DNA of 22,681 bases from IMG/VR virus record IMGVR_UViG_3300047409_000475; one strand, given 5' to 3'. Within the stretch, counting starts at the first letter, position 1. Every line of letters starts with the position of its first letter. This DNA is from an uncultured virus (IMG/VR IMGVR_UViG_3300047409_000475). Lineage: Duplodnaviria; Heunggongvirae; Uroviricota; Caudoviricetes. Below, piece after piece: positions 1-21,648 of the stretch. Position numbers and translations under genes: made by a program. The notes under the pieces were generated by a model. It saw nothing but the letters and a program-made list of their open reading frames with translations, did not search any database and had not been told where the DNA came from.

Positions 1-2
1 TC

Positions 3-2190: not shown

Positions 2191-2915
2191 AGGACGCGAC
2201 GGTCATCACCGCCGTCAATTCCATGCAGACCAATTGGTTCTTGGCCCTCTCGACCGATCCGGGCGCGGGCGCAAGCCCTGCCTACGTCATCCGCCGCACC
2301 AGCGCGTCGCCCGCCGCCAGCGACACCCTCGGCTACATCTCGTTCCAAGGCAACAACTCGGCGCTGGCCAATGTCAGCTACGCCGAGATCATGGTGACCA
2401 TCAACTCACCAACCGCCGCCGCGCACAGTTCCAAGATGTATCTACGCACCTTCAACGCCGCCGCTGCGACCAACGTTATGACCCTCGGGCTTGGCGTGCA
2501 GGTTGGCAATCCAACTGGCGGCGACAAGGGTGGAGGCACGCTCAACGCACAGGTGGCGGTCTATGACAGCGGCGTAGTGCTCAACTGCATGCCGATGCAG
2601 AAAGAGTTCCTCGCGGGTGCCATCGGCGTCGATCTGGACAAGTGGGACAAGATCGCGGTCGCGGCCAACGGCAGGAAGCACGAGGCCGCCCACCATTTCG
2701 CCAAGCTGCTGAAGGAGGGCGTCGATCCGCGCGACCCGCTGAAGTTCATCGGCAAGATGAAGGAAATGCAAGCGCTTCCGGGCATGCCGACAGAGGCGGA
2801 CTGGCGGCACAACGAACTGAGTGTCGGCGAGATGGTCAACCGGATGTGGTTGGCCGTAGAGATGCTCGCCGTGGCTTGGATGACGCAAGTTGAAAAAAGG
2901 GAGACTGCGCAGTGA
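3..2915 (+). CDS. Tail fibre/adhesin-like protein with ~72-aa tandem repeats and C-terminal intramolecular-chaperone-like domain (5' truncated by window edge)
   Basis: Frame is open from position 3 (SAATILGNNGAAAASPKALTV...), so the true start lies upstream. About 10 Ala/Gly/Thr-rich repeats (IATSGSAxDL...TIxGN...ALTVAEVKxML). The C-terminus (ALPGMPTEADW...LSVGEMVNRMWLAVEMLAV) resembles the chaperone/coiled-coil tails of phage fibres. Confidence 0.8.
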   Translation, partial: SAATILGNNGAAAASPKALTVSEVKAMLGVTAGTVLAPIATSGSAADLTAGVIAAARFGVATIGLTKLQAIGADTILGNTTGASASPVALTVAEVRTMLNLGGSTGTLATIATSGSAADLIAGVVPAARLGAGTIALSKLVVIPTHTIIGNDGAAAAEPQALTVAEVKTMLGIATLGSNLAVIATSGSADDLVVGTIPAGRYAAGTIALSRLSVIAPNMLLGNAGTANASPAALTVAQVRTMLNLGGSTGTLAAIATSGSANDLIAGFIPGARFADHTILLAKLALIPPDTIVGNTLTVNAVPIPLTVAEVRTMLNLGGSTGQLAAIATSGSATDLVTGTINVLRIADRSLTVTKLAVMAANTILGNNTGAAVSPIALTVAEVKAMLGVTAGTTLAPIATSGSAAHLTTGVIPAARYGAATIPLTAMVVIAPATILGNNTAANAAPLALTAAAAKTLLGLAAIASSGDASHLIAGLLPAARFAVASIGFNKLVALPTLTLLGNNTAGTAPAQPLTVAQVKAMLGVTAGTTLAKIATSGSATDLITGTLPLATLPVNYIPFARMQYIAAARVMGNVTTVTGPCETVSLPQLSGAMGLKQFATSTDLVHATGTLSEARIANGSLILAKLVNIEADRLIGNNNASGGAAAAPKVLSSPQVAAMLKLGAWATSTDLVHATGTLSAARIATGSLVLAKLEPILADRMVGNYKTTTAVPEVLSKGQVIGWLNCVLKDATVITAVNSMQTNWFLALSTDPGAGASPAYVIRRTSASPAASDTLGYISFQGNNSALANVSYAEIMVTINSPTAAAHSSKMYLRTFNAAAATNVMTLGLGVQVGNPTGGDKGGGTLNAQVAVYDSGVVLNCMPMQKEFLAGAIGVDLDKWDKIAVAANGRKHEAAHHFAKLLKEGVDPRDPLKFIGKMKEMQALPGMPTEADWRHNELSVGEMVNRMWLAVEMLAVAWMTQVEKRETAQ

Positions 2916-3250
2916 AGAAAATCAGGATCAGGGTGCAGGACGGGCCGACCGGCAGCGAGCCGACATCGTCGATCACCGTGCTGCGGCTGGTGGCCAGCAA
3001 CAGCCCGCACAAGCCGCTGCCGGTGGATGAGATCAGGAAGCGCGTCCGCATCATCGATGCGCTCGACGGCGTGACGCCCGAGAACACCAACGGCTACTTC
3101 ATGCTGGAAGACGACGACCACAAGGCGCTGGTCACGGCCGTCAACGACTTCCCGTGGGCGACTGCCAGCCACACGTTGCTCACCATCATCGACGACGTGA
3201 TCGGTGCCGAGACGATGCCCAAATCGTCGATGAAGCTGGTCGAGCAATGA
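2912..3250 (+). CDS. Hypothetical protein, possible tail fibre assembly/chaperone
   Basis: GTGA overlap with the fibre stop; GGGAG upstream; 112 aa; position directly after the fibre. Confidence 0.65.
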   Translation: MKKIRIRVQDGPTGSEPTSSITVLRLVASNSPHKPLPVDEIRKRVRIIDALDGVTPENTNGYFMLEDDDHKALVTAVNDFPWATASHTLLTIIDDVIGAETMPKSSMKLVEQ

Positions 3251-3251
3251 G

Positions 3252-3479
3252 GTGGCCGACCGGATGCCATGCCTCATCCCCGGCTGCGACCGTGACACGC
3301 GCTCGCCCTATAACGGGCGCGTGGGGGCGATCTGCGGCCCGCACTGGTTTAGGCTCACGCTGAAGACGCGGCGCGCGTGGTGGAAGGCTACCGACTACGG
3401 CAAGCGTTCACCACCGCGCGAGCTCGTCGATGCGATTGTCGCTGAACTGAACGACGGTCAGAGCAGGAAGACTGGCTGA
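3252..3479 (+). CDS. Small Cys/His protein (CxxxxC...CxxHW), putative zinc-binding
   Basis: CLIPGC...ICGPHW motif common in small phage proteins; abuts both neighbours. Confidence 0.6.
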   Translation: MADRMPCLIPGCDRDTRSPYNGRVGAICGPHWFRLTLKTRRAWWKATDYGKRSPPRELVDAIVAELNDGQSRKTG

Positions 3480-3991
3480 TGATCCGCAAGGGCAAGCGCT
3501 ACAAGCCGGTGCTGCTCGGAGCTACTGCGCCGAAGGCACCCATGGCTCCGGGCATCAGCCAGCCGAGCACGCAGTATCTCTACAACGTGCAAGTGGACTA
3601 CATCGACCGCGACGGCGCTGACGCGCTGTGGAGCGGCTCGTTCTACGCCGCCAACATGCAGACGGCCGAGAACATGGGCCGCGACTTCGTGGTCAAATAC
3701 CTGCAGCCGCAGTCGATCATCGACGCGGCGACGGTGCCCGACGGCTTCACCACCACGGAGCCGACGCCGATCCTGATGGGCACGCTGGCAGCCAACGAGA
3801 ACCGTGACAGCATGCTGGCGACCGGCACGCTCGGGCCGCTGCCGATCTATGGCACGCTGGCCGCCGTCGAGGGGCCTGCCATCGACCTTGCCGCCATCAC
3901 CGGCAGCCTCGGCCCGCTGCCGATCATCGGCTCGCTGGACACGGTCGAGCCGGGGCCCGACAGCGCCGCCATCACCGGCACCCTCACTTAA
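3479..3991 (+). CDS. Hypothetical protein with three C-terminal ~24-aa repeats (G[TS]L...E..D.AA.TG.L)
   Basis: TGATG overlap with the previous gene; typical GC3 codon bias; repeats visible in the protein. Confidence 0.7.
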   Translation: MIRKGKRYKPVLLGATAPKAPMAPGISQPSTQYLYNVQVDYIDRDGADALWSGSFYAANMQTAENMGRDFVVKYLQPQSIIDAATVPDGFTTTEPTPILMGTLAANENRDSMLATGTLGPLPIYGTLAAVEGPAIDLAAITGSLGPLPIIGSLDTVEPGPDSAAITGTLT

Positions 3992-4002
3992 ATCCCAGAA
4001 AG

Positions 4003-4146
4003 CGGTAAGCGCGCGTCGGGCGGTCCATCCGCCCTACACCCCAACGGGGGCCGCCAGCGCGTGGCAGACCGTGGCGGCGGCGAAGCCAAGCTGGACGCGA
4101 GCAAGGCTTCGCCGCTATTATCCAGTCCCCTACGAAGGGCTTACGA
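4003..4146 (+). ncRNA. Candidate structured non-coding RNA (unknown class)
   Basis: Closing stem GTAAGC(4005-4010)/GCTTAC(4139-4144) encloses several hairpins and a possible pseudoknot; lies between a stop codon and a terminator. Confidence 0.4.
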
Positions 4147-4153
4147 CAAACCG

Positions 4154-4189
4154 AAAAAACCCCCCGGAATTTAATCCGGGGGGTTTTTT
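4154..4189. terminator. Bidirectional intrinsic terminator
   Basis: AAAAAACCCCCCGGA-ATTTAA-TCCGGGGGGTTTTTT perfect inverted repeat between convergent gene blocks. Confidence 0.9.
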
Positions 4190-4246
4190 GTTGTTTTCCC
4201 GACAAGGGAAAAAACTTCCCCGGCCCGCCGGGGAAGTTGGGGAAGT

Positions 4247-4498
4247 TCATTCGTCGATCCAGTTGCCGCCGCGCGGCCGGTAGTCGCGCTCGTCACCGTG
4301 CAGGCCGTGCAAGAGGGCGAGCCCTTCACCGCTCAGGGCGCGGGCGAGCTCCTCGTCACGTGCCTCCTCGGCCTCCCCGACTTGCCGCACGAGCTCGGCG
4401 ATCTCGTCAGGGGGGATGTTGGCGGCGTCGAGCAGCGCGGCGACCTTGCGCTGCAATCCGGTCGTCTTGGTCAGGTCCATGCCATCAACGTAGGTCAT
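4247..4498 (-). CDS. Hypothetical protein (83 aa)
   Basis: GGAG upstream of ATG; overlaps the stop of the upstream gene; last gene before the terminator. Confidence 0.7.
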   Translation of the reverse strand: MTYVDGMDLTKTTGLQRKVAALLDAANIPPDEIAELVRQVGEAEEARDEELARALSGEGLALLHGLHGDERDYRPRGGNWIDE

Positions 4499-4757
4499 GT
4501 GCGTGCTCCGCGTTCAGCTTGTTGGCGAGTGCTTCGGCTTCAACGACCGCCTTGGCAAAGGCGTTGCGGTTGCTGGAGCCCATGTTGCGACGCTCCCACG
4601 TATCGACGATCCGCACCACGCCTCGGGCGTGCGTGCCGATCATCTTCGGCGCTTCGCCTGCGGGAAGGTCCGTCTCGACGACGGCCACCCGGCCGTAGCG
4701 TCCCCAGCAGCGAGATGGCATCTTGGCGCTGGCAGTCATCACGATAAATCTGTTCAT
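4485..4757 (-). CDS. Hypothetical protein (90 aa, MNRFIVMTAS...)
   Basis: Start preceded by the junction variant GGAGAAATGACCATG. Confidence 0.8.
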   Translation of the reverse strand: MNRFIVMTASAKMPSRCWGRYGRVAVVETDLPAGEAPKMIGTHARGVVRIVDTWERRNMGSSNRNAFAKAVVEAEALANKLNAEHAHDLR

Positions 4758-4759
4758 GG

Positions 4760-4951
4760 TCATTTCTCCTTCCGATGTGTGAACTCCACGAGGCGAGCCG
4801 GGATCACGATGCTGCTGTTGCAGTCGTCGCAGCAGCGACCATCGTTGACCGGCCACGCGTTGTTGCCGTAGCCGCTGTATGGCTGCTGGCAGATCGAGCA
4901 GACCTTCGTCTCCTTGGTTGTCCCAAGGCCGTAGCGTCCAATCTCGGTCAT
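4760..4951 (-). CDS. Small zinc-finger phage protein (CxxC...GNNAWP...RCCDxCN)
   Basis: 63 aa; exact junction motif at start; Cys pattern seen in many small phage proteins. Confidence 0.8.
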   Translation of the reverse strand: MTEIGRYGLGTTKETKVCSICQQPYSGYGNNAWPVNDGRCCDDCNSSIVIPARLVEFTHRKEK

Positions 4952-4953
4952 GG

Positions 4954-5154
4954 TCATTCTCCCTTCCGGTGAACGGCGCTGATCTCGCTGGGGCGGACTA
5001 CGAAGGCGGCGGTGCCCTCGTAGCGCACGGTTGGCCAGTCGGTGGCCGAGAAGCCGTTGACGACGCGCGTCACCTTGCGGGTGGGCCAGCGACAAATCGC
5101 GCGGAACGTGATGCGGTCGCCGACCTTCCAGCCGTGCATGTTCTCAGTCTTCAT
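4954..5154 (-). CDS. Hypothetical protein, possible SH3/KOW-like beta barrel (66 aa)
   Basis: Exact junction motif at start; WKVGDRITF N-terminal pattern. Confidence 0.75.
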   Translation of the reverse strand: MKTENMHGWKVGDRITFRAICRWPTRKVTRVVNGFSATDWPTVRYEGTAAFVVRPSEISAVHRKGE

Positions 5155-5156
5155 GG

Positions 5157-5402
5157 TCATTCTCCTTCCGTCTTCACCGCGCGGTAGACCCGTCTGGTGT
5201 ATGTGTGGTGGGGCTGCTTGTAGATCGGGTGCTTGACCGTCTCCTCGTAGACCGCCACCAGCCCGCGCTTCACGAGGCTGTCGAGCAGCCGCACGGCGGT
5301 CGAGTGGTTCTTCCATACCCAAATCCCACCGGGGTAGCCGCCGTGGCGGCGGATCGCGTCGAGGATGCTCGCCTGCTCCGTTCCTAATTTGCGTGTGGTC
5401 AT
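5157..5402 (-). CDS. Hypothetical protein, possible winged-helix DNA-binding (81 aa)
   Basis: GGAGAACGACCATG at start; EQASILDAI...RLLDSLVKRGLV pattern is wHTH-like. Confidence 0.75.
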   Translation of the reverse strand: MTTRKLGTEQASILDAIRRHGGYPGGIWVWKNHSTAVRLLDSLVKRGLVAVYEETVKHPIYKQPHHTYTRRVYRAVKTEGE

Positions 5403-5422
5403 GGTCGTTCTCCTGTTGGGTT

Positions 5423-5734
5423 CAAGGGTGAGGGTCACTGCAACAGTGGTCGATGACGCCAGCAGCGGCTGGCTCCCACGCTACGCTCCCGCTTATTCCC
5501 ACCGTCGGGCATCGCCCGATACTCGCTTTTTCGCGGTCCTCTTGGGCCGGTATCTTGCGCCGTGACCCCTCACTCCTTGTCGGCTCGCTGGATGATCTCT
5601 CGCCAACCCTTCGGCGGTTCGCATTCCGCTGTCTCGGCAGTCAGTTGCGTCCCGTCTCACTCGGGCTGCTGCCTATGGCGTCCGACGAGAGATCGTCTAG
5701 AGAGCCTGTGGGCTGGCGGGGCTTTCGCCCCGCC
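5423..5734 (-). ncRNA. Candidate ~310-330-nt structured RNA or processing element inside the leftward early operon
   Basis: Two long-range stems (5423-5438/5562-5579 and 5582-5602/5686-5706), many internal hairpins and a GAAA-capped hairpin (5715-5734); no credible ORF. Strand assignment is uncertain. Confidence 0.5.
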
Positions 5735-5755
5735 TGTTGCCTCGGCTTCAGCACA

Positions 5756-6046
5756 TCAACCAACCTCCTCCGTGCGGGCGAGCGCCCGGCGGAATGCCGG
5801 GTCTACGTTCTCGTCTTCAAGCAGCATGCCGAGCGGCCCGGAGGCGGTAGTCATGCGGCGTGCTGCCTTGATGATCCGGTCAAGGACCGCAGTGTCGTGC
5901 TTGTTGGGTCCGCCGTTCTCGTCGGAGGTCGAGATGTTGGCCACCCACTCAAGGAAGTCGTCGCGCTCGCGGCCACGGCCGGTGGTGTATCTGACACCCG
6001 TGGGCATCGAGCCGCGAGCTCTGGCGATTGCTGCTGGTGTGTTCAT
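5756..6046 (-). CDS. Hypothetical protein (96 aa)
   Basis: AGGGGATGACCATG junction variant at start. Confidence 0.75.
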   Translation of the reverse strand: MNTPAAIARARGSMPTGVRYTTGRGRERDDFLEWVANISTSDENGGPNKHDTAVLDRIIKAARRMTTASGPLGMLLEDENVDPAFRRALARTEEVG

Positions 6047-6048
6047 GG

Positions 6049-6285
6049 TCATCCCCTTTCCTCGGTTGCTCTACGGATGCGGCCATCGTCGCCGACGTAG
6101 AGGGCTGTGCTGTGATGGCCGCCGGTCTTCACCCAGCGGTGCGCCTCGGCGGCGCTGACGTGGCGGACCTTGTCGTAGGTCCGGTGCAGGTAAGTCCGCT
6201 CGGTGACGTTGCGCGTCTCGTGCAGCGTCGAGGACGTGAAGAATGGGCTGTCCTTCGAGAGGTTCGATCCGATGTAGTAGCTCAT
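6049..6285 (-). CDS. Hypothetical protein (78 aa)
   Basis: Exact junction motif at start. Confidence 0.75.
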   Translation of the reverse strand: MSYYIGSNLSKDSPFFTSSTLHETRNVTERTYLHRTYDKVRHVSAAEAHRWVKTGGHHSTALYVGDDGRIRRATEERG

Positions 6286-6295
6286 GGTCATTCTC

Positions 6296-6865
6296 CTATG
6301 CCGGGGTGAGCAGGGGGTGGCGGGTGCGCTCGGCGTCAAGCTTGCCGATCACGTAGTGGATCGCGAGACGCTCTGCCTCGGTGGCGACGGGGTTGGAGCC
6401 GTAGAGCAACCCGAGCAGCACTGCCCTGTGGCGCTCGCGCTCCTCGTCCTTTACCCGCTTGCGCTCGGCGCGCTCGGCCTCGAACTTCGCCGCCGCTGCC
6501 TCACCAGCCGCCTTCGCGGCCTCGAAGCCTTCGGCAGTCCGCAACTGGCCGGTCCTGACCAGTTCGACGACCTTGGCGTAGTTGCTCGGGTCCATCCACG
6601 GCTTGCTGGCGCTGGCGAGGTAGACGGTGCGCAGGCGTGCGCCTTCCACCGTCTCGATGTGATAGTCCCGGCCCCAGCCATTCGGCATGCTCAGGTAGCC
6701 GACCAGCGCACCGTCGAGGCGAACCTCGATGAGGCTGCGCTCGCGCGCGGCGCTGGTGCTGTAGCGGTAGCTACGCGGCTTGATCTTGGTGAAGCGGACG
6801 TGATCCAGCGCATCGAGCTCGGCCGCGTTGCTGGTGTTGTAGACTGCCTTCAGTTCCTTCGTCAT
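6296..6865 (-). CDS. Hypothetical protein (189 aa), first gene of the leftward early operon
   Basis: Exact junction motif at start; follows promoter and hairpin leader. Confidence 0.8.
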   Translation of the reverse strand: MTKELKAVYNTSNAAELDALDHVRFTKIKPRSYRYSTSAARERSLIEVRLDGALVGYLSMPNGWGRDYHIETVEGARLRTVYLASASKPWMDPSNYAKVVELVRTGQLRTAEGFEAAKAAGEAAAAKFEAERAERKRVKDEERERHRAVLLGLLYGSNPVATEAERLAIHYVIGKLDAERTRHPLLTPA

Positions 6866-6980
6866 GGTCATTCTCCTATCTCAGGCGGGGGGACCAGACC
6901 CATCAACCGCGACCACCCACTCTCTGTCTTTGTCGAGGTGTTAAGTGGTGGTTCGGTGTTGTCTTGGTCTGGTCCCTCCT

Positions 6981-7020
6981 GCCCAATGCATATAAGTTGG
7001 CACACACGACGTTCAAGGGG
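6981..7020 (-). promoter_or_regulatory. Leftward sigma70-like promoter TTGAAC-N16-TATATG with TGCCAACTTATATG box
   Basis: 34/40 identical to the element at 8677-8716; lies upstream of the operon. Confidence 0.7.
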
Positions 7021-7392
7021 ATTACTCAAGCCCTTGTGCATGGCAGCTATGCGGCAGTGGAGGGTAAGTGGGGAGGGCGCACTCCTGCCCGGCGACCAAA
7101 CCGGAACAGGGGCCTTCCCTCCCCCCTGCCGGGGAGAATAGTCCGACAGGTAGTCCCGATGTAAGCCCGATCAGCGCGTAGAGCAAGCCGGAAGGCGGCA
7201 GTGCTCCATGGCTGGCCACCTTTCCTGCCACTCGCGGCGGGCCCGCTCGACGGCACTCTCTTCCCGGCGCGTGGCGTCGTCGTAGTAGAGGTAAGGACGG
7301 CCCGTCTGGCCACCTCGCGTGAGGTGTTCGATGCAGGGCGGCTGGGCGCAGGAGGCGGCGATAAGGATGACGGTGGGCATGTGCAAACTTTT

Positions 7393-7428
7393 CCCCTTGA
7401 ACATATAAGTTGGCATTCCATTTATAGC
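7393..7428 (+). promoter_or_regulatory. Rightward promoter (CCCCTTGAAC -35) with the 14-bp box inverted in the spacer
   Basis: Same CCCCTTGAAC as the other promoters, followed by CATATAAGTTGGCA (7402-7415) and an AT-rich -10 region; about 40 bp upstream of the DUF932 gene. Confidence 0.6.
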
Positions 7429-7463
7429 CTGTCGCTGGCTAAATGGCGACTAGGAGAAAGACC

Positions 7464-8552
7464 ATGAGCACAATCACTACCGCATCACAACAGTGGGCCT
7501 CGCGCCCGGACGACGAACGCTTCACCTCGCTGCATGACCTGAGCGATCACTTCCACCGCATCCGCGAATTGTCGGCCAGCAAGGTGGTCACGACCAGACA
7601 GATCAGCGTCGAGCCCGTCGAGGGTGAGCGCAACGGTCTGCAGGTTGTCGGCCCGAATGGCAACGGCTACGCGCCGACGCACTGGAGTTTTGGCCAGCTT
7701 GCTTCGCTCGCCAAGGCACCGGCCGGTTACCTGCGGACGCTTCCGGGCCCGCTGGCGGCGGACAACATCAACTACGGCCTCAAGTTTGCTCGCGAGAGCG
7801 AGGAGGTTGGTGTCCTTCTGCAGCGCGGTGACGAGCCGCAACTGCGGGCCGCGACCGGTCCTTCATACGGGAGGATTTGGAACAGCGAAGTCTCTGACGC
7901 GCTCGTGTCCCGCTTCGGGGACGGCGTGACCGGCGATTGGAAGGTGCCCGGCGAGTTCGGCCACGACGTCGCGGTCACGAAGCGGAACACCACGATTTAC
8001 GGAAGCGATAGGGACATGTTCGTGTTCCTCGCCGACGAGCACAACAAGATCGAGGTGCCGGATCGCCGCGACGGCCAGCCGGGTGCGATGTCCAGAGGCT
8101 TCTTTGTCTGGAACTCGGAAGTCGGCGCAACCTCAATCGGGGCCAGCTTTTTTCTCTTTGACTATGTGTGCATGAACAGGATCGTCTGGGGTGCACGCGA
8201 CTACAAGGAGATCAGGCTGCGCCATAGCCTGACCGCTCCCGACCGCTGGTTGGAGGAGGTCACCCCGGTGCTGATCGAGTATAGCAAGTCCTCTGCTCAG
8301 CCGGTCATCGACGCGGTGGCGGCAGCCAAGGCCGCGAAGCTTGACAACGTCGATGAGTGGCTCGCGAAGCGCTACTCCGCGAAGCAGGCGGTCACCCTGC
8401 AGGCGGTGCACGGTCGCGAAGAGAACCGGCCCATCGAGACGCTCTGGGACGTGTCCACGGCGCTCACTGCGCAGGCTCGCGACCTGACCTACCAAGACGC
8501 CCGCGTGGCGCAGGAGCGGGAAGCCGGAAAGGTGCTGGCGCTGGCAGCGTAA
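7464..8552 (+). CDS. DUF932-family protein
   Basis: N-terminal QWASRPDDERFTSL and motifs PTHWSFGQL, RAATGPSYGRIW, SDRDMFVFL, RGFFVWNSEVG, VCMNRIVWG match the DUF932 type found on alphaproteobacterial mobile elements; GGAGAAAGACCATG start. Confidence 0.8.
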   Translation: MSTITTASQQWASRPDDERFTSLHDLSDHFHRIRELSASKVVTTRQISVEPVEGERNGLQVVGPNGNGYAPTHWSFGQLASLAKAPAGYLRTLPGPLAADNINYGLKFARESEEVGVLLQRGDEPQLRAATGPSYGRIWNSEVSDALVSRFGDGVTGDWKVPGEFGHDVAVTKRNTTIYGSDRDMFVFLADEHNKIEVPDRRDGQPGAMSRGFFVWNSEVGATSIGASFFLFDYVCMNRIVWGARDYKEIRLRHSLTAPDRWLEEVTPVLIEYSKSSAQPVIDAVAAAKAAKLDNVDEWLAKRYSAKQAVTLQAVHGREENRPIETLWDVSTALTAQARDLTYQDARVAQEREAGKVLALAA

Positions 8553-8615
8553 CAGCCAGCGCCGGGGGGCAGGGGAGCCGGGCATCTGGGGTGTCCGGCT
8601 CCCTCCACGACGGTC

Positions 8616-8644
8616 AAGGGCGGTCCTACGGGGCCGCCCTTTTT
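8616..8644 (+). terminator. Intrinsic terminator after DUF932 gene
   Basis: AAGGGCGGTCC-TACG-GGGCCGCCCTTTTT with a cUACGg (UNCG) tetraloop; preceded by a second hairpin at 8573-8603. Confidence 0.85.
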
Positions 8645-8676
8645 GCATGGCTGGTAGCCTGCCCGCGCCAGCAATT

Positions 8677-8716
8677 CCCCTTGAACGTCACGTATACCAA
8701 CTTATATGCTTTGGGT
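8677..8716 (+). promoter_or_regulatory. Rightward promoter TTGAAC-N16-TATATG with box TACCAACTTATATG
   Basis: Near-duplicate of 6981-7020; lies between a terminator and an RBS. Confidence 0.7.
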
Positions 8717-8729
8717 AAGGAGAACGACC

Positions 8730-8984
8730 ATGAACCGCAAGGACTACACCGAAGGCGAGAGCGAGAGGCAACTGCGCAAGTGGGGCTTCGAGCTCCGGGG
8801 CGGCGAGCCGCACGTGTCCCACGACATCTGGGACCACTGGGACGACGGCCGCTCGATCATCGTCTACGACGACGGCCGCTGGTATCTCATCATCCGGGGC
8901 CGCCTCGCTGACGCCACGCCCAACCGCCGCACCGGACGCGGCACCGCCAGCCTGATGACCTACCTCAGAACCGCAGGAGAATGA
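8730..8984 (+). CDS. Hypothetical protein (84 aa)
   Basis: GGAGAACGACCATG start; ends in GE* within the next junction. Confidence 0.8.
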   Translation: MNRKDYTEGESERQLRKWGFELRGGEPHVSHDIWDHWDDGRSIIVYDDGRWYLIIRGRLADATPNRRTGRGTASLMTYLRTAGE

Positions 8985-8986
8985 CC

Positions 8987-9166
8987 ATGACCGACATCGT
9001 CACCGCCATCATCGCCTACGAGAACGGCGAGCTCGACGACGAAAGCACCGACGAACTGTTCCAGCACCTCGTGGACAACGGGATGGCTTGGAGCCTGCAA
9101 GGCCACTACGGCCGCACCGCCATGGACCTGATCCGGGCCGGGCGCGTGACCCCGAAGGGAGAATGA
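8987..9166 (+). CDS. Conserved small phage protein (YE.GEL...LFQ.LVD.G.AWSLQGHYGRTA)
   Basis: Recognisable widespread phage motif AWxLQGxYGRxA; exact junction motif at start. Confidence 0.85.
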   Translation: MTDIVTAIIAYENGELDDESTDELFQHLVDNGMAWSLQGHYGRTAMDLIRAGRVTPKGE

Positions 9167-9168
9167 CC

Positions 9169-9444
9169 ATGACCGACATACCGCGCATCCACGCCGAGCT
9201 CGCAGTCGAGCTCGGTGTCGATAGGATCGCCGCCAGCTACGTCAGGGAGAAGCACCTACCCGCTTTGCTGCGCTCCCCTTGGGGTGATACCCGGCAGATC
9301 GTAGAACGTCTGGAGCGCGCCCTGCGGGCTGGACAGAAGGGTGTGGCTCGCGGCCACTGGGCGGCAGACGCCAATCGGCTGCTGGCCATCCGGGGTGCGC
9401 TGCAGACTGAGCGCGCCACGCTGGTAAGGGAGATCGGGCAATGA
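9169..9444 (+). CDS. Hypothetical protein, resembles alphaproteobacterial DUF6477-like proteins
   Basis: Pattern Y.R...LP.LL...RLERALRA...G..GHW..D.NR; exact junction motif at start. The family name is tentative. Confidence 0.7.
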   Translation: MTDIPRIHAELAVELGVDRIAASYVREKHLPALLRSPWGDTRQIVERLERALRAGQKGVARGHWAADANRLLAIRGALQTERATLVREIGQ

Positions 9445-9662
9445 AAGAACTGCGCGTCGGCATGCCGCTGACGCTGCGCACCCTGCATCGCCGCACCGGC
9501 AAGCCCGGTGCGCGCGATGGTTACGTCGTCAGCATCCGCAAGCTGACCCCCAAGTTCATCTACGTCGGCAGCGACCGCTACCACCGCGACACGTTGCGCC
9601 AGTATCAGACCAAGGACGACGACTGGCGCAGCGACTGGATCATCTGGCTGGAGCCTAGATGA
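9441..9662 (+). CDS. Hypothetical protein (73 aa), beta-rich
   Basis: ATGA overlap, GGGAG SD; LRVG...VVSIRKLTPKFIYV pattern. Confidence 0.75.
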   Translation: MKELRVGMPLTLRTLHRRTGKPGARDGYVVSIRKLTPKFIYVGSDRYHRDTLRQYQTKDDDWRSDWIIWLEPR

Positions 9663-9853
9663 ACCGATGGGCGGATCGGATGCTCGACGAGCTCCGCGAC
9701 AAGGCTGTCGAATTGCGCCGCCAGTTGGCGGGCATCGAGGCCGCCATCAAGGCGCTGGAAGCCGGTTACGATACCGAGCCGCTGGATTATCCTGCGGCCC
9801 TCACCCGCATCGAGAAAGCAGTTGACGATCTGAAGCACGACAAAGGAGAATGA
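9659..9853 (+). CDS. Small coiled-coil hypothetical protein (64 aa)
   Basis: ATGA overlap, GGAG SD; heptad pattern; ends KGE* in a junction motif. Confidence 0.75.
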   Translation: MNRWADRMLDELRDKAVELRRQLAGIEAAIKALEAGYDTEPLDYPAALTRIEKAVDDLKHDKGE

Positions 9854-9855
9854 CC

Positions 9856-11073
9856 ATGAAGGACGCAACGACCGACGATCCGCGCCTGACGCTGCTCGAC
9901 ATTGCCTCCACCGACGACCACCCGCGCCGGGGGCTGCGGTTGCGCCCGAGCATCGCCGCCGTCTGGGCGCAGCGCTCCAACGCACGCCGCTTCGTGTTCG
10001 ACCGCGAGGCCTCGCGCCGCGTCGGCGAGATGCTCAACGGGCACACCGACTTGCTGGTCGATAACATCGAGTTCGCGAGAACGCCCTTCCCCACCTGCTA
10101 CTTCGAGTTCGATGCCCGCGCCATGTGGGCGGCGTGGCGGCCCGAGCAGCCGCACTCGCTCACCTCCGACGAGCGCGTCGGCTACCTCGTGCACGAGGGG
10201 ACCGTGGTCATCCTGTCGAACGGCAAGCGCCCCAACACGGTGCGTTCGGCGCTGTGGCCGGGTGCAGGCTTCGGCGGCGTCTGCTTCCGCATCAACCGGC
10301 CGCAGGCGATCCCGCTGACGCGGCTCACCGGCCACAACGAGGTGGACGCCACCCGCATCCGCGACGCCTACGTGTTCGGCGGCCAGCGGCAGATCGACCT
10401 CAACGATCCGCGCGTCTTCAAGCACCCGCATGGTGGTCCGATCAGCATCGACCAAGGGTCAATGCGCGGCGAGCTCGGAGCGGGCATCACCATGCCTGAG
10501 CTCAAGGGCGCGTGGACGCATGGCCAGATCGCCAGCCACTTTGATCTGCAGCCGACCTTCAACACCGTGACGCACTTCGGTGAATTGCGCGACACACCTG
10601 GGCGCGAGTTCTCAGAGCTCTGCTTCATGGGGGGCGGCGATCCGCTGACGCTGGTGACGCTGCTGTTGTTGCTCAACCAGCCGAGCAAGTTCGTCAGCAT
10701 GCAGCCGGTGGCGCGCACGGTTGGCCTGTGGCGGGGCGCGCGCAAGGTGTTCCAAGAGCACCACGTCGTCACGCTGCACGTCAGCGACCGGCCGGTCAGG
10801 GTCAGGGACATCTTCAACCTCACCGACCGCAAGAGCCCGGTGAACCATGACGTGATGGGACATTGGAAGCACTTCAACAAGGCGACCGACTGCGACCATC
10901 ACTTCCCCGGCGGCCAGCGCATGGCGTGGGAGCCCATCGGGGCCGAGCGCACATTGTCGGGCGACTACAAGCGCTATTGGTGTAGCCTGTGCCTGCAGCG
11001 GCGGACGTGGACCGAAGCGTTCCGCACCGGGGGACCGGGCGTTGCCACTACCGAGTATGCGGTGACGCGATGA
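9856..11073 (+). CDS. Hypothetical phage protein with C-terminal HxVxGHW motif and Cys/His zinc-ribbon-like insert
   Basis: 405 aa; exact junction motif; SPVNHDVMGHWKH...CDH...CSLC...W...F.TG.P. Confidence 0.8.
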   Translation: MKDATTDDPRLTLLDIASTDDHPRRGLRLRPSIAAVWAQRSNARRFVFDREASRRVGEMLNGHTDLLVDNIEFARTPFPTCYFEFDARAMWAAWRPEQPHSLTSDERVGYLVHEGTVVILSNGKRPNTVRSALWPGAGFGGVCFRINRPQAIPLTRLTGHNEVDATRIRDAYVFGGQRQIDLNDPRVFKHPHGGPISIDQGSMRGELGAGITMPELKGAWTHGQIASHFDLQPTFNTVTHFGELRDTPGREFSELCFMGGGDPLTLVTLLLLLNQPSKFVSMQPVARTVGLWRGARKVFQEHHVVTLHVSDRPVRVRDIFNLTDRKSPVNHDVMGHWKHFNKATDCDHHFPGGQRMAWEPIGAERTLSGDYKRYWCSLCLQRRTWTEAFRTGGPGVATTEYAVTR

Positions 11074-11321
11074 GAGATTTCACCAAGCAGGAATTGGACG
11101 CGGCGCGCGACATGGCCGACAAGGTCATGGGGCTCTACCAGCCGTTCGCCAACCAGCCAAGCTTCGTCGTGATCAGCCTCATCCACGCCATGACGCGGGT
11201 GATGTCGCTGTTGCCGCCGGGGAATGACGAGGCGATGCTCGATGTGGTGCGCGACCTGATCAAGTCGGGGCTGCCGGTGATGCGCCGGATCGTCAACGAG
11301 CACGCCAAGACGCTGCAATGA
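11070..11321 (+). CDS. Hypothetical protein (83 aa)
   Basis: ATGA overlap with the previous stop; helical, good codon bias. Confidence 0.7.
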   Translation: MRDFTKQELDAARDMADKVMGLYQPFANQPSFVVISLIHAMTRVMSLLPPGNDEAMLDVVRDLIKSGLPVMRRIVNEHAKTLQ

Positions 11322-11328
11322 AGTTGCA

Positions 11329-11544
11329 ATGAGCCACTACCGCACGCTCAAGGCGGTCGATGACTTCACGGTGCGCAGCCACGAGAAGTTCCGCTTCTCG
11401 TGCTGCGACTGCGGCCTCGTGCACGACATGCTGATGGTGGCCAGCCCGAAGGGCCGGGTGATCGGCGTGGCGGTCGAGCGCAACGAGCGTGCAACAGCGG
11501 CGATGCGCCGCGAGATGAAAAAGCGCAGGAGGCTGCTCGGATGA
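11329..11544 (+). CDS. Small phage protein with CCDCGLVH motif
   Basis: CCDCGLVH...R.ERATAA.RR pattern recurrent in phage hypothetical proteins. Confidence 0.75.
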   Translation: MSHYRTLKAVDDFTVRSHEKFRFSCCDCGLVHDMLMVASPKGRVIGVAVERNERATAAMRREMKKRRRLLG

Positions 11545-11813
11545 CTACGGTGTTCGTCAGGCGGCGGGTGATCGACATGCTCTACGAGTTCGCCATGCTG
11601 ACCAGCGTCGCGCCCTTCCGCCTGCATGACTACGTGCGCAAGCAGCGCACCAGCGACCTGTGGGAGGTGAACATGAACGAGCAAATCTACGCCATGGTCG
11701 TCAAGCTGCGCCGACCGGAAGAGCCATTCGACGATGCGGCCGAGCGCGTCCTGCAATACTCCATCGACTGGGCGACGGGACAGGTGCAAGGGGCGACGCG
11801 GCGCGTGACCTGA
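11541..11813 (+). CDS. Hypothetical protein (90 aa)
   Basis: AGGAGG SD, ATGA overlap. Confidence 0.7.
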   Translation: MTTVFVRRRVIDMLYEFAMLTSVAPFRLHDYVRKQRTSDLWEVNMNEQIYAMVVKLRRPEEPFDDAAERVLQYSIDWATGQVQGATRRVT

Positions 11814-11882
11814 TGGTGCGCCCGCCGATCCACGGTCGTCGAGGGGGGCGGGGGAATTGACCTAGGGGGCGGGCGCGGCGCT

Positions 11883-12845
11883 TCAGGTGGGATACTTGCG
11901 GCTCGTCGGCAAGAACGATGTCTCGATCTCGTTCCACTTGTCGGTGACCCGCTGCCGCACCGCCGCACGCAATTCTACGGCAGCGGCGGCATCGGAGCGC
12001 AGCGCCTTGAGCAGCGCCGCAGGCTTCTCGTCGTTCAGCGCCGCGTGTGCGTCGAGGAAAGCGACGCAGGCCTTGTGGTCATCGACGCCGTAGCCGAAGG
12101 TGATTTCAAATTCACACTCGCGGAATGGCAGCGACACCTTGTTTTTTTCGAGCCGCGCCTTGACCGTGATGCCGGTGATCCGCTCGATGCCTTTCACCTC
12201 GCGGCGCACGAGGCTCGTCTGTGTCAGGTGCACGACTTGGCTGGCGTAGAAATCCAATGCCTTGCCACCGGCACGCACCCACGCCTTGCCATAGCCGCCG
12301 ATCCTCGAACGCGTCTGGCTGACGATCATCAGCGTGACGTTGGCCTTCGCCATGTCGCCGACGCGCCGCCGGAAGAGCTCCGACAGCGCAGCAGCCTTGT
12401 CGGTGCCGTAGGTGGCGCTGCGGAAATCGCGTTCCTTCTCGGCGATGTCGCCGAGCGCGTCCAAGCTATCGACGATGTAGAGCACCGGCTTCGGTGCCTC
12501 GTCGATGACGCGTGAGAGGTCGTCGTAGAAATCCTCGACGGTGTCGAGGTGATCCAGCTTGATGCGCTCCACCGGCAGCCCAAGGCTGCGCGCGTAGTGC
12601 TCGTCGAAGGAGTGCTCGCTCTCGCGATACCAGATGCTGCCGCCCGGATGCGCGATGCCGAAGTTGGCACACGCCTCGATGGCCAGCAGCGTCTTGCCCG
12701 AGCTCCGGTCGCCGACCACGTTGCTGATCCGGCCGAGCGCCCAGCCACCGCCGAGCGCCCGGTCGAGCACCGTGCAGCCCGAGCCGGTGAAGCTGAGGCT
12801 GTCAGGCTCCACCGGCTCGGGCTTCGGCTTACTCCGCTTCGCCAC
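11883..12845 (-). CDS. recA: RecA/UvsX-like recombinase
   Basis: SGCTVLDRALGGG, Walker A GDRSSGKT, Walker B YIVDSL, SQTR, GGKALDFYAS, KNKVS.PFR. Confidence 0.92.
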   Translation of the reverse strand: MAKRSKPKPEPVEPDSLSFTGSGCTVLDRALGGGWALGRISNVVGDRSSGKTLLAIEACANFGIAHPGGSIWYRESEHSFDEHYARSLGLPVERIKLDHLDTVEDFYDDLSRVIDEAPKPVLYIVDSLDALGDIAEKERDFRSATYGTDKAAALSELFRRRVGDMAKANVTLMIVSQTRSRIGGYGKAWVRAGGKALDFYASQVVHLTQTSLVRREVKGIERITGITVKARLEKNKVSLPFRECEFEITFGYGVDDHKACVAFLDAHAALNDEKPAALLKALRSDAAAAVELRAAVRQRVTDKWNEIETSFLPTSRKYPT

Positions 12846-13056
12846 GCTGCACCCGTGCCACCAGCATGGCCTCAGCGGCGCTGTAGGCGTGATCGGCCAG
12901 CGCCCGGTAGGTCAACTCGGTTGGTGGTGACATGCGCCGCCCCAGCAGCCCGCTGAGCGCCTGCGCGGCGAAGTAGTCGCGCAGGCTCATCCCCTTGAAC
13001 ACGGCACCCGTGGCAGCGGGGAAGGCGGGCTCGTCGCCCGTCGGGTTATCGAGCAT
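12829..13056 (-). CDS. Conserved small phage protein (PAFP...GMSLRDYFAA...AY..A.AML.AR)
   Basis: Well-known widespread phage motif GM[ST]LRDYFAA. Confidence 0.85.
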   Translation of the reverse strand: MLDNPTGDEPAFPAATGAVFKGMSLRDYFAAQALSGLLGRRMSPPTELTYRALADHAYSAAEAMLVARVQRGEAE

Positions 13057-14003: not shown

Positions 14004-14008
14004 ATCTT

Positions 14009-14521: not shown

Positions 14522-14532
14522 CCTCCCTGTCC

Positions 14533-17022: not shown

Positions 17023-17025
17023 GGA

Positions 17026-17862: not shown

Positions 17863-18016
17863 CGCTACCTCCAAAAGGATGGCGAAGCTAGGCGCATCGG
17901 ATCGATTGCGCAAGCCCCGAATTTATTCGATGACGAGGGTCGCGCGCAGGCGCGCGGACTTCAATGTCTAAGGCTACCACCATTCTTTTCAGAGACTGAA
18001 AAACTTGTAGGTGAAA

Positions 18017-18100: not shown

Positions 18101-18220
18101 TAGTTCTTTGAGAACAGGCGCGCGTAAGATGGTTGGTGTATGTTGTAATTGGTAATTTGATCTGATAGGGGGCATTGGATGTTGAAATTGGAAATTCCCC
18201 TGACAGAAGGAATGGGAGCC

Positions 18221-18812: not shown

Positions 18813-18822
18813 AAGGTCCGAG

Positions 18823-19859: not shown

Positions 19860-19950
19860 AATAAGTTGAGTAAGTGGGCTTGCCGCCCAGCCAATATAGC
19901 CACACCTAAGCAGGCAGCCGGACCTCAATGCGTCTGGCAAGGAGATGACC

Positions 19951-21648
19951 ATGCAAGTCAAGTTGAAAGAGTTGAAGCCCAATCAATTTCGCGACTTCGC
20001 CGTCGATCCCGTCGATGAAGCGCAAGTCGCCACCCTCACCAAGTCCATCAAGACCAACGATTTCTGGGGCGGCGTCGTCAGCCGCCAGACCGACGACGGC
20101 ATCGAAGTTGCCGCTGGCTGGCACCGTATCAAGGCCGCCATCGCCGCAGGCAAGGTGACGGCAGAAATCTACGTCGCGCCGAAGGGCAAGATGACCGATC
20201 ACGACGCGATCCGCATCTACGCCACCGAGAATGCCACGCACCGTGGCGACCATGGCGCGGCCGTCGCCGGATCGGTGGCGTCGGCCATCAAGTATATCGC
20301 ACGCGCCATCCTCACCGAAAATTGGTCGCTGATTGGTGGTGACTTCTCGGCGGCGCAGCAGGCCACCCTGAGCAAGAACCTGCTCGACAACGGTGTCGGT
20401 GAGAAGGTCATCTTGGGGTTCTTGGGCGACATCCCCGGCATCAACAACGGCACCATCCGCGACCAGATCATCAACCTCAAGTCATCCGGCATCTACGACC
20501 GGCTGATCGGTGAGGTGCAGGCTGAGCTCGCCGCCATCGAGGCGGCCGAGCGCAAGGCGGCTGCCGAGGCAGAGGCCGAGAAGCGGCGCGCGGCCGAAGC
20601 TGCGGTGCGCGCCGAGTTCGAGCGCACTGTGGCAGCCGAGAAGCGCGAGAAGGAACGCGAGGCGGCGCGTGCCGCCAAGGCGAAGCGTGACGCCGAGATC
20701 GCCGCCGAGAAAGAGGCGAAGCAGAAGCAGCGGCTGCGCGAGGAGGCGGCGCGCGAGGCTGATCGCGAGCGGCGCGCCGAGGCGAAGCGCAAGGCCGACG
20801 AGGAGCGCGCCAAGGAGCGCGCCAAGGCTGATGCCGAGCACCGCAAGCGGGCCGATGCCGAAGCCAAGGAGCGCGCCGAGCGCGCCGCCAAGGCGAAGGC
20901 CGAGAAGGAGGCGGCCGACAAGGCGAAGGCCGCTTCCAAGGAGGAGGAGCGCAAGCTGCGCGAAGACCGCAAGGCGTTCGACTTCGAGGGCGTCACCGCT
21001 GTGCTCAAGGACGCCAACTACGTCACCCTGTTCCGCGAACTGGTGACCGGCATCGGTGTCGCACCCTACGTCGGGCGCGACGAGCAGGCAGAGCTCGCCA
21101 AGCGGCTGGTCAAGGCGGCGAAGCAGGAGCCGGAAGACCGCTTCAAGCACCGCCGCGACGATCCCACCCGCTTCCCCGGCTTCATGCGGGAGTTCGTCCT
21201 GACGCTGGCCGTCGCCATGCAGAAGGAGAAGGCAGGCATCACACGCGCGCAGGAGAAGGAAGCGCAGCGCGCCGACAAGTATCGGCAGGCAGAGCAGAAG
21301 CTGGAGATGTTCTGGAGCGGCATTCGCTCAGCCCGGTCGCAGTTCTTCGGGCTGGTGCGGCTTGCCGAGGAAGCCAAGATGAACCCGGCACAGCACATCA
21401 CCTTCCGGCAGTGCATCGACGCGATGCTGGAGGTGATGGAGGAGTGCCGCAAGCAGGGGTTCAGTAATTGGGAGGGCGAGGATGATGTGGTGCGTGCAAC
21501 GCGCACCAGCGTCAACGGGCGTTACCACAAGATGGTCGCTCACCTCAGCAACTCCAACGAGGGTGAGCGGCACAATGCTGCTGACCTCTTGCACGAAGCA
21601 GCCCGCAAGAGGGGAACGACCGTGCCCAAGCTGCTGGGCATCGAGTGA
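19951..21648 (+). CDS. ParB/Srx-like N-terminal domain protein with long Ala/Glu/Lys/Arg helical region
   Basis: LKPNQFR...LTKSIK..DFW..VV.R....EVAAGWHRIKAA ParB-like motif; about 150-aa charged helix; GGAGATGACCATG start. Confidence 0.75.
   Translation: MQVKLKELKPNQFRDFAVDPVDEAQVATLTKSIKTNDFWGGVVSRQTDDGIEVAAGWHRIKAAIAAGKVTAEIYVAPKGKMTDHDAIRIYATENATHRGDHGAAVAGSVASAIKYIARAILTENWSLIGGDFSAAQQATLSKNLLDNGVGEKVILGFLGDIPGINNGTIRDQIINLKSSGIYDRLIGEVQAELAAIEAAERKAAAEAEAEKRRAAEAAVRAEFERTVAAEKREKEREAARAAKAKRDAEIAAEKEAKQKQRLREEAAREADRERRAEAKRKADEERAKERAKADAEHRKRADAEAKERAERAAKAKAEKEAADKAKAASKEEERKLREDRKAFDFEGVTAVLKDANYVTLFRELVTGIGVAPYVGRDEQAELAKRLVKAAKQEPEDRFKHRRDDPTRFPGFMREFVLTLAVAMQKEKAGITRAQEKEAQRADKYRQAEQKLEMFWSGIRSARSQFFGLVRLAEEAKMNPAQHITFRQCIDAMLEVMEECRKQGFSNWEGEDDVVRATRTSVNGRYHKMVAHLSNSNEGERHNAADLLHEAARKRGTTVPKLLGIE

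Follow-up and report, generated by a model that had tools for sequence, protein, structure and literature searches.

The window analysed here, a stretch of 22,681 nucleotides, belongs to an uncultured soil phage with a genome GC content of 64%, whose host is probably an alphaproteobacterium. A second IMG/VR record, G001, holds the rest of the same phage; it is identical (100%) to window positions 9776-22681, and the two together span at least 52 kb. Genes were called heuristically with our own script, which rewards starts preceded by a Shine-Dalgarno (SD) sequence. A Pfam and PHROGs scan found that the phage encodes RecA/UvsX-like, gp32-like, SbcCD-like and PDDEXK/RusA-like proteins. Every related record found in a search for relatives was this phage itself, with 100% identity. 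For PolA, identity to the nearest relatives does not exceed 42%, and those relatives lack the motif described below; among GenBank phages it does not exceed 31%.

A 14-mer, GGAGAATGACCATG, recurs in exact and variant form at gene starts in the window (Table 1). Each copy makes up a whole initiation region, consisting of the SD core GGAG, the spacer AA(T/C/A)GACC with a constant length of 7 nt, the start codon ATG, which is present at every copy, and then an A. When 15 copies are aligned, the conserved block runs from about position -2 through the A after the ATG (14-17 nt), and the flanks show no conservation upstream of position -2. The ORFs that follow the window copies are always in the sense orientation and encode 59-405 aa, or 565 aa after the most distal variant.

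Table 1. Copies of the 14-mer and accompanying elements in the window (position 1 is the first nucleotide of the window).
Feature	Position	Strand	Context
Two terminator-like hairpins	4154..4238		Close the minus-strand array and convergent plus-strand genes
Variant GGAGAAATGACCATG, one-base insertion (extra A)	4755..4769	-	Start of ORF 4485-4757; TGA is stop of ORF 4760-4951
Exact copy	4949..4962	-	Start of ORF 4760-4951 (63 aa, Cys-rich); TGA is stop of ORF 4954-5154
Exact copy	5152..5165	-	Start of ORF 4954-5154 (66 aa); TGA is stop of ORF 5157-5402
GGAGAACGACCATG	5400..5413	-	Start of ORF 5157-5402 (81 aa, phrog_14896); no upstream ORF ending there
Terminator-like hairpin	5504..5520
Variant AGGGGATGACCATG, GGGGATGACCATG-like	6044..6057	-	Start of ORF 5756-6046; TGA is stop of ORF 6049-6285
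Exact copy	6283..6296	-	Start of ORF 6049-6285 (78 aa); internal TGA unused, upstream gene 6296-6865 ends at a TAG overlapping motif base 1
Exact copy	6863..6876	-	Start of ORF 6296-6865 (189 aa), first gene after promoter-like element 6990-7016
Promoter-like element TTGAAC-N11-CCAACTTATAT	6990..7016	-	Heads the minus-strand array
GGAGAAAGACCATG	7453..7466	+	Start of ORF 7464-8552 (362 aa, phrog_1362; homologues annotated DUF932)
Promoter-like element, same family as 6990-7016	8681..8707	+	Heads the plus-strand array 8730-9853
GGAGAACGACCATG	8719..8732	+	Start of ORF 8730-8984 (84 aa); 11 nt past promoter-like element
Exact copy	8976..8989	+	Start of ORF 8987-9166 (59 aa, DUF7417); TGA is stop of ORF 8730-8984
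Exact copy	9158..9171	+	Start of ORF 9169-9444 (91 aa); TGA is stop of ORF 8987-9166
Exact copy	9845..9858	+	Start of ORF 9856-11073 (405 aa, no family); TGA is stop of ORF 9680-9853
Variant GGAGATGACCATG, one-base deletion	19941..19953	+	Start of ORF 19951-21648 (565 aa, no family)

The seven exact copies that an earlier note had placed in the window were all found where it put them, compared with none across 100 dinucleotide-preserving shuffles. Its six variants likewise all lie at gene starts; the entries for those at 4755, 6044 and 19941 are given in corrected form in Table 1. Allowing up to three mismatches, the window yields 14 matches against 1.45 expected, 12 of them already listed in that note. 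The remaining two, at 11219 and 21611, precede ORFs of just 9 and 8 aa and were rejected as gene starts. G001 adds five further exact copies and about five further variants; one of these additional sites is located between the SbcD-like and SbcC-like genes. Across at least 52 kb, GGAGAA[T/C/A]GACCATG occurs 15 times, always sense-oriented at an ORF start and nowhere else, and TGACCATG is found at 19 sites, of which 17 are SD-preceded ORF starts; shuffles predict 1.1. About 21 of the 87 gene starts lie within two edits of the motif, including roughly six indel or two-edit variants, and the distribution of edit distances is bimodal (18 starts at 0-2 versus 69 at 3-9).

Copies of the motif are restricted to one class of genes. 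It precedes 21 of 57 early-region genes and none of 30 late-region genes (Fisher p=3.7e-5), and none of the nine named replication and recombination enzymes (p=0.019), which bears out, for genes that can be named, the claim that tail and replication genes lack it. Late genes instead carry GGAGG-type sites with varied spacers. The genes behind the motif are compositionally native (GC3 of 0.84 versus 0.82, p=0.30), and pairwise comparison of the phage proteins linked to it found no similarity at E<=0.01. The arrays are headed by a single promoter-like family of about 40 nt, and the region of the plus-strand element matches G001 20853-20908 with 84% identity over 58 nt. Terminator-like hairpins are limited to the two locations in Table 1.

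The anatomy of the motif suggests how it might act. In seven of the 12 exact copies and in two variants, the TGA within the spacer is the stop codon of the upstream gene and precedes the following ATG by 2 nt. C or A occupies base 7 in three copies, each of them at an operon-first gene without an in-register upstream ORF. The predicted unpaired probability from -12 to +4 averages 0.56 at 17 motif starts, compared with 0.42 at 68 other starts (p=0.001), a gap that may be partly compositional, as the motif itself is A-rich in a genome of 64% GC. For comparison with starts in general, we collected, across 110 other phage loci, 198 distinct ORF starts of the form GGAG-N7-ATG. This generic set prefers A at bases 5, 6 and 9 (0.59, 0.51 and 0.39), C at base 11 (0.41) and A after the ATG (0.53), and its commonest triplet before the ATG is ACC (20 of 198). 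The motif spacer thus equals the generic phage-start preference plus an embedded stop, a combination whose exact spacer that preference predicts in only about 1 in 1,500 such starts.

Taken together, the anatomy of SD, spacer, stop and start, the match to the generic preference and the greater predicted accessibility indicate that its primary role is in translation. We therefore favour the reading that the 14-mer is the standard initiation and coupling module of this phage for one gene class, and the genes it serves are probably for the most part small ones without assigned function in early, non-structural operons. Judging from geometry, a ribosome terminating at the TGA would be held by GGAG and would start again on the following ATG. 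In front of operon-first genes, the module would act as an ordinary open ribosome-binding site. The copies would be uniform because each represents a generic phage start optimum (GGAG-AA..ACC-ATG-A) with a stop built in, and this uniformity may be kept because selection favours strong initiation on early transcripts whatever the context. Several observations count against this account. In five of the 12 exact copies, base 7 is T without serving in a stop. Plain selection for the best ribosome site does not explain why late genes, presumably including highly expressed virion genes, avoid the motif, nor does it explain identity at all seven spacer bases.

One alternative is a site for a trans-acting factor. 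A phage or host protein, a nuclease or an RNA might bind or cut the motif on mRNA and so tune the whole early class jointly, much as T4 RegA and RegB act on early ribosome sites. The discreteness of the class, the extension of identity to bases that no ribosome site needs and the exclusion of late genes and replication enzymes all fit such a factor. Among the matches of 71 proteins to Pfam and PHROGs, however, there is no translational-repressor or RegB-type nuclease family, and there is no separate complementary locus, as segments able to pair over at least 10 nt are either the opposite strand of copies or weak G-U pairings. Furthermore, eight other unrelated phage-like contigs (GC 41-72%) have the module at the head of arrays of unrelated small genes, a recurrence that also favours the translational reading. 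The phages with the same 14-mer have no detectable protein in common with the source phage, which is not expected of a private regulator. We consider a dedicated factor unlikely, if still a serious competitor; it was also raised, in the available account of the cluster K start-associated sequences, by the authors who described them (PMC3203893).

On counts from Alphaproteobacteria, the group of the probable host, the motif does not look like a general host-type ribosome site. Across 201 Alphaproteobacteria genomes there are 65 matches, 15 of which come from one IS element, and a reversed-motif control gives two; the phage carries 14 copies in 52 kb. In bacterial MAGs (loci L177 and L178), the paired motif stems from tandem paralogues. 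This last case lends something to the idea that the copies are a historical residue, left at the junctions of tandemly duplicated small genes whose coding parts have diverged past recognition, as does the clustering of copies in arrays with 180-260-nt spacing. Duplication of this kind is very improbable as the explanation here: the motif-linked proteins show no pairwise similarity, as noted above, the copies are spread over four separate genome regions on both strands, and a neutral remnant should decay as fast as its flanks, which are unconserved.

A further alternative is that the motif is kept as a recombination joint, at which phage recombination enzymes insert, delete or swap small genes in register. 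Any crossover between copies would restore an intact junction, since the repeat contains the SD, the stop and the start, and the phage encodes the recombination proteins listed above. Some of its copies are alike over up to 27 of 29 nt, and another pair over 22 nt, as had been reported for the copies at 8976 and 9158. Indirect evidence comes from other phage lineages, the only ones in which gene-sized indels ending in start junctions were seen. In one locus (L170), a 97-aa gene lies between two copies of this motif; a related locus (L166) lacks the gene, and both end points fall within the copies. The alignments of the two loci share a 16-nt overlap at the motif, the lone L166 copy has base 7 from the left L170 copy and base 8 from the right, and nucleotide identity shifts from 88% to 97% across the motif. 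Similarly, two other loci (L197 and L221) differ by a 58-aa gene that has a repeated CAACCAAGGAGA start junction at its borders. A scan of related loci found nine distinct clean indels, and in three or four of them the common end sequence is an SD-to-start repeat 9-32 nt long; overall, five or six of ten clean indels between related loci end at a repeated ribosome-site/start junction.

Such indels do not reveal a purpose, because any repeated junction of 14-17 nt would leave the same pattern as a by-product. Gene junctions are where indels should be seen in any case, as products of other kinds do not survive, and any repeat blurs the end point. The repeat is short (14-17 nt, with unconserved flanks), and the motif genes are neither compositionally foreign nor paralogous, which are signs against recent turnover. 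Selection for future evolvability is also a weak force, and an immediate translational benefit a stronger one. A motif maintained for recombination as such is an unlikely proposition, and we rate it below a trans-acting factor. With about 20 repeats in the genome, the motif is nevertheless likely to undergo short-homology recombination incidentally, and it is plausible that recombination there is a by-product of a translational role. A dual use, in which the motif is a standard part that both insulates coupled starts and permits in-register gain, loss and reordering of ORFan genes through UvsX, gp32 and SbcCD at a useful rate, is possible, if some way short of probable.

The 14-mer belongs to a kind of phage signal that is already known, and most likely it serves translation and is not a dedicated gene-shuffling device. 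A signal of the kind seen in cluster K mycobacteriophages is now found in an unrelated uncultured soil phage with a probable alphaproteobacterial host; it acquires a simple anatomy, that of a generic phage start optimum with a built-in stop, and is tied to one promoter class. If the indel pattern generalises, it would supply a minimal way for small early genes to turn over, and it is among these genes that anti-defence and host-takeover functions are usually looked for. If the dual-use reading is true, repeated start junctions would be a general means, as yet without a name, by which ORFans turn over in many phage lineages, and one that requires no promoter-terminator cassette. None of these findings is a large surprise.

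The closest known counterparts are the start-associated sequences (SAS) of cluster K mycobacteriophages. In the available accounts (Pope et al. 2011, PMC3203893; a 2025 survey, PMC12699233), these are short asymmetric repeats, present in roughly 10-20 copies per genome, with the consensus GGGATAGGAGCCC located 3-7 bp upstream of the start; about half have an upstream 17-bp inverted repeat (ESAS), they recur at the same gene families in related phages, and their function is described as still unexplained, with translation suspected. As far as those descriptions go, the 14-mer resembles SAS in being a short asymmetric repeat (15 copies plus about six variants in at least 52 kb) that is confined to the non-structural part of the genome and has one orientation relative to the gene. 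Starts are nearly always ATG with SAS and always ATG here. Both elements hold an SD core with conserved bases beyond SD pairing and sometimes overlap an upstream stop codon. SAS are rare in host-type genomes, and the 14-mer may be as well, judging by its count in the 201 Alphaproteobacteria genomes. The two differ in sequence (GGAGAATGACCATG versus GGGATAGGAGCCC) and probably in host, cluster K phages infecting mycobacteria. Moreover, the block of the 14-mer runs from SD through spacer to start codon, whereas SAS, as described, flanks the SD and lies 3-7 nt ahead of the start, and the 15 aligned copies, unconserved above -2, lack ESAS-like inverted repeats.

Promoter-early stem-loops (PeSLs) of T4-type phages are a second relative. 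As portrayed by Arbiol et al. 2010 (PMC2839356) and Comeau et al. 2014 (PMC4122927), they are composites of a sigma-70-like promoter and a terminator stem-loop, and recombination between copies accounts for indels between related phages, the very idea that the earlier note proposed for the 14-mer; PeSLs are also associated with mini-circles. Both are, on this portrayal, repeated regulatory sequences before small ORFan genes in variable early regions, and PeSLs end with an SD and start codon, which the 14-mer also has. Unlike PeSLs, the 14-17-nt block contains no -35/-10 pair, and most copies lie between coupled genes inside operons. One chance promoter match, TTGACG-18-GAGAAT, occurs at 9822-9851. 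Nor does the repeat enclose a stem-loop terminator, the hairpins of the window lying elsewhere (Table 1); the phage's promoter-like family, roughly 40 nt long and separate from the 14-mer, comes closer to the PeSL promoter.

Translational coupling junctions and engineered bicistronic-design ribosome sites place an SD within the end of the upstream ORF and a stop a few bases from the next start, making downstream initiation independent of that gene's own sequence. The 14-mer has the same arrangement of SD and stop. Natural coupling junctions are, to our knowledge, not normally base-for-base identical across a dozen unrelated genes of one genome; the 14-mer, by contrast, is identical across about that many.

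The 14-mer GGAGAATGACCATG is a real and clearly non-random feature of this phage. Its seven exact copies lie in the window where the earlier note had placed them, as opposed to none in 100 dinucleotide-preserving shuffles, and allowing up to three mismatches yields 14 matches where 1.45 are expected. The previous tally of thirteen copies holds, with twelve among these matches and the thirteenth at 19941. The copy at 19941 is a form shorter by one base (GGAGATGACCATG), and that at 4755 is better taken as a form longer by one base (GGAGAAATGACCATG). Each of the thirteen is followed by a sense-oriented ORF of 59-405 aa, and those at 8976 and 9158 do share 22 bases. Matches at 11219 and 21611 were rejected as gene starts, the ORFs after them being just 9 and 8 aa. 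The whole phage holds 15 copies of GGAGAA[T/C/A]GACCATG, with T at base 7 in 12, C in two and A in one. The core TGACCATG occurs 19 times, with 1.1 expected; 17 of these occurrences are at ORF starts preceded by a Shine-Dalgarno (SD) sequence, and a search of the phage for scattered non-start copies of the motif was negative. Once four start choices are re-assigned, some 21 of the 87 starts called differ from the motif by no more than two edits, and the edit distances are bimodal, with 18 starts at 0-2 and 69 at 3-9; genes were called with our own codon-usage script, which gives SD-preceded starts a bonus.

Locations of promoter-like elements, genes and a repeat in the window, in the record holding the rest of the same phage (G001, with its loci L007 and L008) and in a marine phage contig (L166)
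Feature	Location	Strand
Promoter-like family copy	window 8681-8707	+
Promoter-like family copy	window 6990-7016	-
Promoter-like family copies, two places in G001	L008 853-915; L007 15860-15900	
Promoter-like family site	window 7398-7415	+
DUF932-like protein	window 7464-8552	
DUF7417	window 8987-9166	
RecA/UvsX-like	window 11883-12845	
gp32-like SSB	window 13056-14003	
UDG-exonuclease-PolA fusion	window 14533-17022	-
Portal, endolysin, large terminase, primase, SNF2 helicase, DnaB	G001	
GcrA-like and NusG-like, SbcC- and SbcD-like proteins	G001	
L166 ~48-nt repeat	~536-583, 922-958, 1391-1455, 2969-3016, 4232-4279	reverse

The IMG/VR record G001 (42,436 nt) matches window positions 9776-22681 at 100% identity, ends there and lacks window bases 1-9775, so the phage spans at least 52 kb. 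It is widespread in soil and very uniform: all or part of the window was found in 18 soil runs, parts of it in ten or more runs from different studies, and the window, G001 and a 9-kb IMG/VR record (L155) are 100% identical. GcrA is an alphaproteobacterial cell-cycle regulator, and the GcrA homologue together with a GC content of 64% suggests an alphaproteobacterial host. The GcrA-like gene and one for a NusG-like protein adjoin the terminase gene (L007 9304-9780 and 10225-10728, minus strand). Two further proteins have composite architectures. The three-part DNA polymerase joins a uracil-DNA-glycosylase-superfamily domain (residues 54-193) to a 3'-5' exonuclease and a family A polymerase, and an unusual portal fusion of 1,448 aa (L007 848-5194, minus strand) carries a portal domain (44-396), a pyridine-nucleotide-disulphide oxidoreductase domain (660-960) and, in addition, a C-terminal part.

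The motif is built as an SD core, GGAG, a 7-nt spacer and ATG. Across the 15 copies, conservation runs from about position -2, which is A-rich, to an A after the ATG, and the flanks carry no information, which marks it as a discrete module of 14-17 nt rather than the central part of some longer repeat. In seven of the 12 exact copies and in the variants at 4755 and 6044, the upstream ORF terminates at the TGA within the spacer. No ORF ends at this TGA in the remaining five exact copies; one of these has an upstream gene ending at a TAG that overlaps base 1, and four have no in-register upstream ORF. Where base 7 is C or A, as it is in three copies, the copy is always operon-first, and this distribution indicates that the stop role is real but secondary. 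Recoding by frameshift or read-through at GAA-TGA-C was rejected on inspection, since the site lacks a slippery heptamer and another TGA follows in frame. GAGAAT was likewise rejected as a -10 box because copies sit within operons and have no -35 element. Pairing with the 16S 3' end that extends past GGAG seems unconvincing. Predicted accessibility from -12 to +4 is higher at motif starts than at other starts (0.56 versus 0.42, p=0.001) and than at non-motif genes of the early region (0.45, p=0.013). Translation initiation and coupling is probably the function of the 14-mer.

The motif is confined to particular genes. Its reported absence from tail genes extends to the late regions as a whole (the window below 4000 and G001 below 15000), where no gene out of 30 carries it; among the remaining 57 genes, 21 do (Fisher p=3.7e-5). 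The named replication and recombination enzymes also lack it (0 of 9, p=0.019). In G001, an exact copy heads a 144-aa gene lying between the SbcD-like gene and the SbcC-like one. Genes carrying the motif resemble the rest in GC3 (0.84 versus 0.82, p=0.30) and in length, and the description of the genes between copies as unrelated agrees with the lack of detectable paralogy among motif-linked proteins. Strict motif identity and exclusion from late genes are what a trans-acting reader of the motif would account for. Such a reader is nevertheless unlikely: no translational-repressor or RegB-type family appears among the matches of the 71 proteins scanned, and the phage has no locus complementary to the motif and no antisense RNA with its complement.

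Much of the sequence follows a generic preference of start sites. Loci of other phages (110, totalling 1.06 Mb) supplied 198 distinct ORF starts of the form GGAG-N7-ATG, in which the spacer favors A at bases 5, 6 and 9 and C at base 11, with A after the ATG, and ACC is the most frequent triplet before ATG (20 of 198). The motif amounts to this preference plus T-G at bases 7-8, which with A9 forms the stop codon. The exact spacer occurs in none of the 198 starts and is expected about once per 1,500 from their frequencies. This preference accounts for which sequence is used; it does not account for the presence of twelve identical copies in a single genome. To gauge whether the motif is simply the ribosome site of the host, matches were counted in 201 alphaproteobacterial genomes, sampled from the class to which a Hyphomicrobiaceae MAG belongs: 35 genomes contain 65 matches, as opposed to two for a reversed control. 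These counts are indicative only, as is the density of about a quarter of a match per several-Mb genome compared with 14 in 52 kb of phage. Three of the 65 are tandem paralogues, and a single IS element of one genome (G068) supplies 15. In contig 1 of that genome (L179-L183), the transposase start site of the 15 IS copies is the same 14-mer.

Single 14-mers are common in IMG/VR (at least 120 stretches), whereas pairs 165-195 nt apart are rare, with four in IMG/VR (one being this phage), nine in JGI metagenomes and three in GTDB genomes. Setting aside one duplicate record, a 99-bp tandem repeat (L168), tandem-paralogue cases (L175, L177 and L178) and L176, where a 20-aa ORF follows one of the only two copies, leaves eight unrelated phage-like lineages of 41-72% GC, each with the module or near variants on 2-6 non-homologous small genes. 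The only detectable protein they have in common with this phage is a DUF7417 fragment. In several, the upstream gene ends just before GGAG or crosses the motif in another frame, and some variants have TAA in place of TGA. Two permuted-spacer controls gave no pairs as opposed to four for the motif, but they are just 3-4 times less likely per copy by background frequencies and prove little; the recurrence is thus taken to reflect convergence on a favored sequence and does not prove that one system is shared. Approximately 8 of 80 other loci repeat a start 14-mer of their own three times. Repeats of TGCTCGGAATG in two loci, L141 and L137, were rejected as start motifs, being 9-bp tandem repeats. 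In L168 (1871-2966, minus strand), each 99-bp unit contains the 14-mer followed only by 8-aa ORFs, so the 14-mer is not a start junction there. The motif-sharing marine phage contig L166 has a ~48-nt repeat in five or more copies in its small-gene region, possibly the promoter or terminator cassette of that phage.

The earlier note had proposed the motif as a joint for the gain, loss and shuffling of accessory genes. No relatives of the phage were found for comparison. Window 4000-12000 gave no match to GenBank phages by megablast and blastn, or only short single-gene ones at 70-75%. Relatives of the DUF932-like protein (24 loci, 46-60% aa identity) contain no exact copies; of nine PolA loci, two are the same phage and the others, at most 42% identical, have no motif copies. 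A search with the 405-aa protein returned the same phage alone, and PolA tblastn against GenBank phages reached at most 31% identity. Contigs from four soil runs (X3-X6), which cannot show rare deletions or circles, are identical to the window in their long pieces. The only joint near motif copies, from 8712 to 9153, occurs in a single X3 contig with 23 letters on its short side and none fitting both sides; rather than a deletion, it most simply reflects the paralogous copy of promoter plus motif that this genome carries at G001 20853-20908. Among 41 of the 82 variant positions, none is inside a motif copy, which is weak evidence.

In other phages, alignments indicate that gene-sized indels break at repeated start junctions. 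A 97-aa gene in L170 lies between GGAGAATAACCATG and GGAGAACGACCATG, and L166 lacks the gene and has GGAGAATGACCATG at the junction, where there is a 16-nt overlap between the alignments and a shift in identity from 88% to 97%. A 58-aa gene bounded by CAACCAAGGAGA distinguishes L197 from L221. Across all pairs of related loci, a scan gave nine distinct clean indels, whose shared end is an SD-to-start repeat of 9-32 nt in three or four and just two bases in two. The closely related phage contigs L148 and L149 (99% identity) carry different inserts at one junction, 1,132 nt and 448 nt (~1894-2999 and ~2199-2664); their shared end, CAGGAGAAGCCATGA plus the first codons, points to cassette replacement at a start junction. 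Repetition would give such breaks equally well as a by-product, with selection retaining the junctions that work. A selected role of the motif in recombination is improbable. A search for literature linking ribosome binding sites, microhomology and mosaicism found nothing relevant.

The motif arrays are preceded by a conserved promoter-like family, CCCCTTGAAyG-N11-CCAACTTATATGC. Before the DUF932-like gene, its CCAACTTATAT part is inverted relative to TTGAAC, which suggests a candidate regulator half-site rather than a -10 region alone. The minus-strand small-gene array also contains a gene-free gap of ~350 nt (window 5403-5755), with a hairpin at 5504-5520, TTGAAC immediately before the motif at 5400 and no Rfam match; the window as a whole has no Rfam families and no tRNAs.

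The exact 14-mer was not found in a literature search. The 14-mer is a signal of the start-associated-sequence (SAS) kind, and the SAS of cluster K mycobacteriophages is the nearest described system (PMC3203893, PMC12699233). The two have in common their copy number, restriction to non-structural genes and position at ATG starts, as well as an SD core with unexplained conserved bases and a function unknown for both (PMC3203893, PMC12699233). They differ in sequence, extent and host, and the phage described here has no extended inverted repeats of the SAS kind (PMC3203893). The model behind the joint proposal was the promoter-early stem-loops of T4-type phages, which are promoter-terminator composites; the 14-mer module is not such a composite (PMC2839356, PMC4122927).
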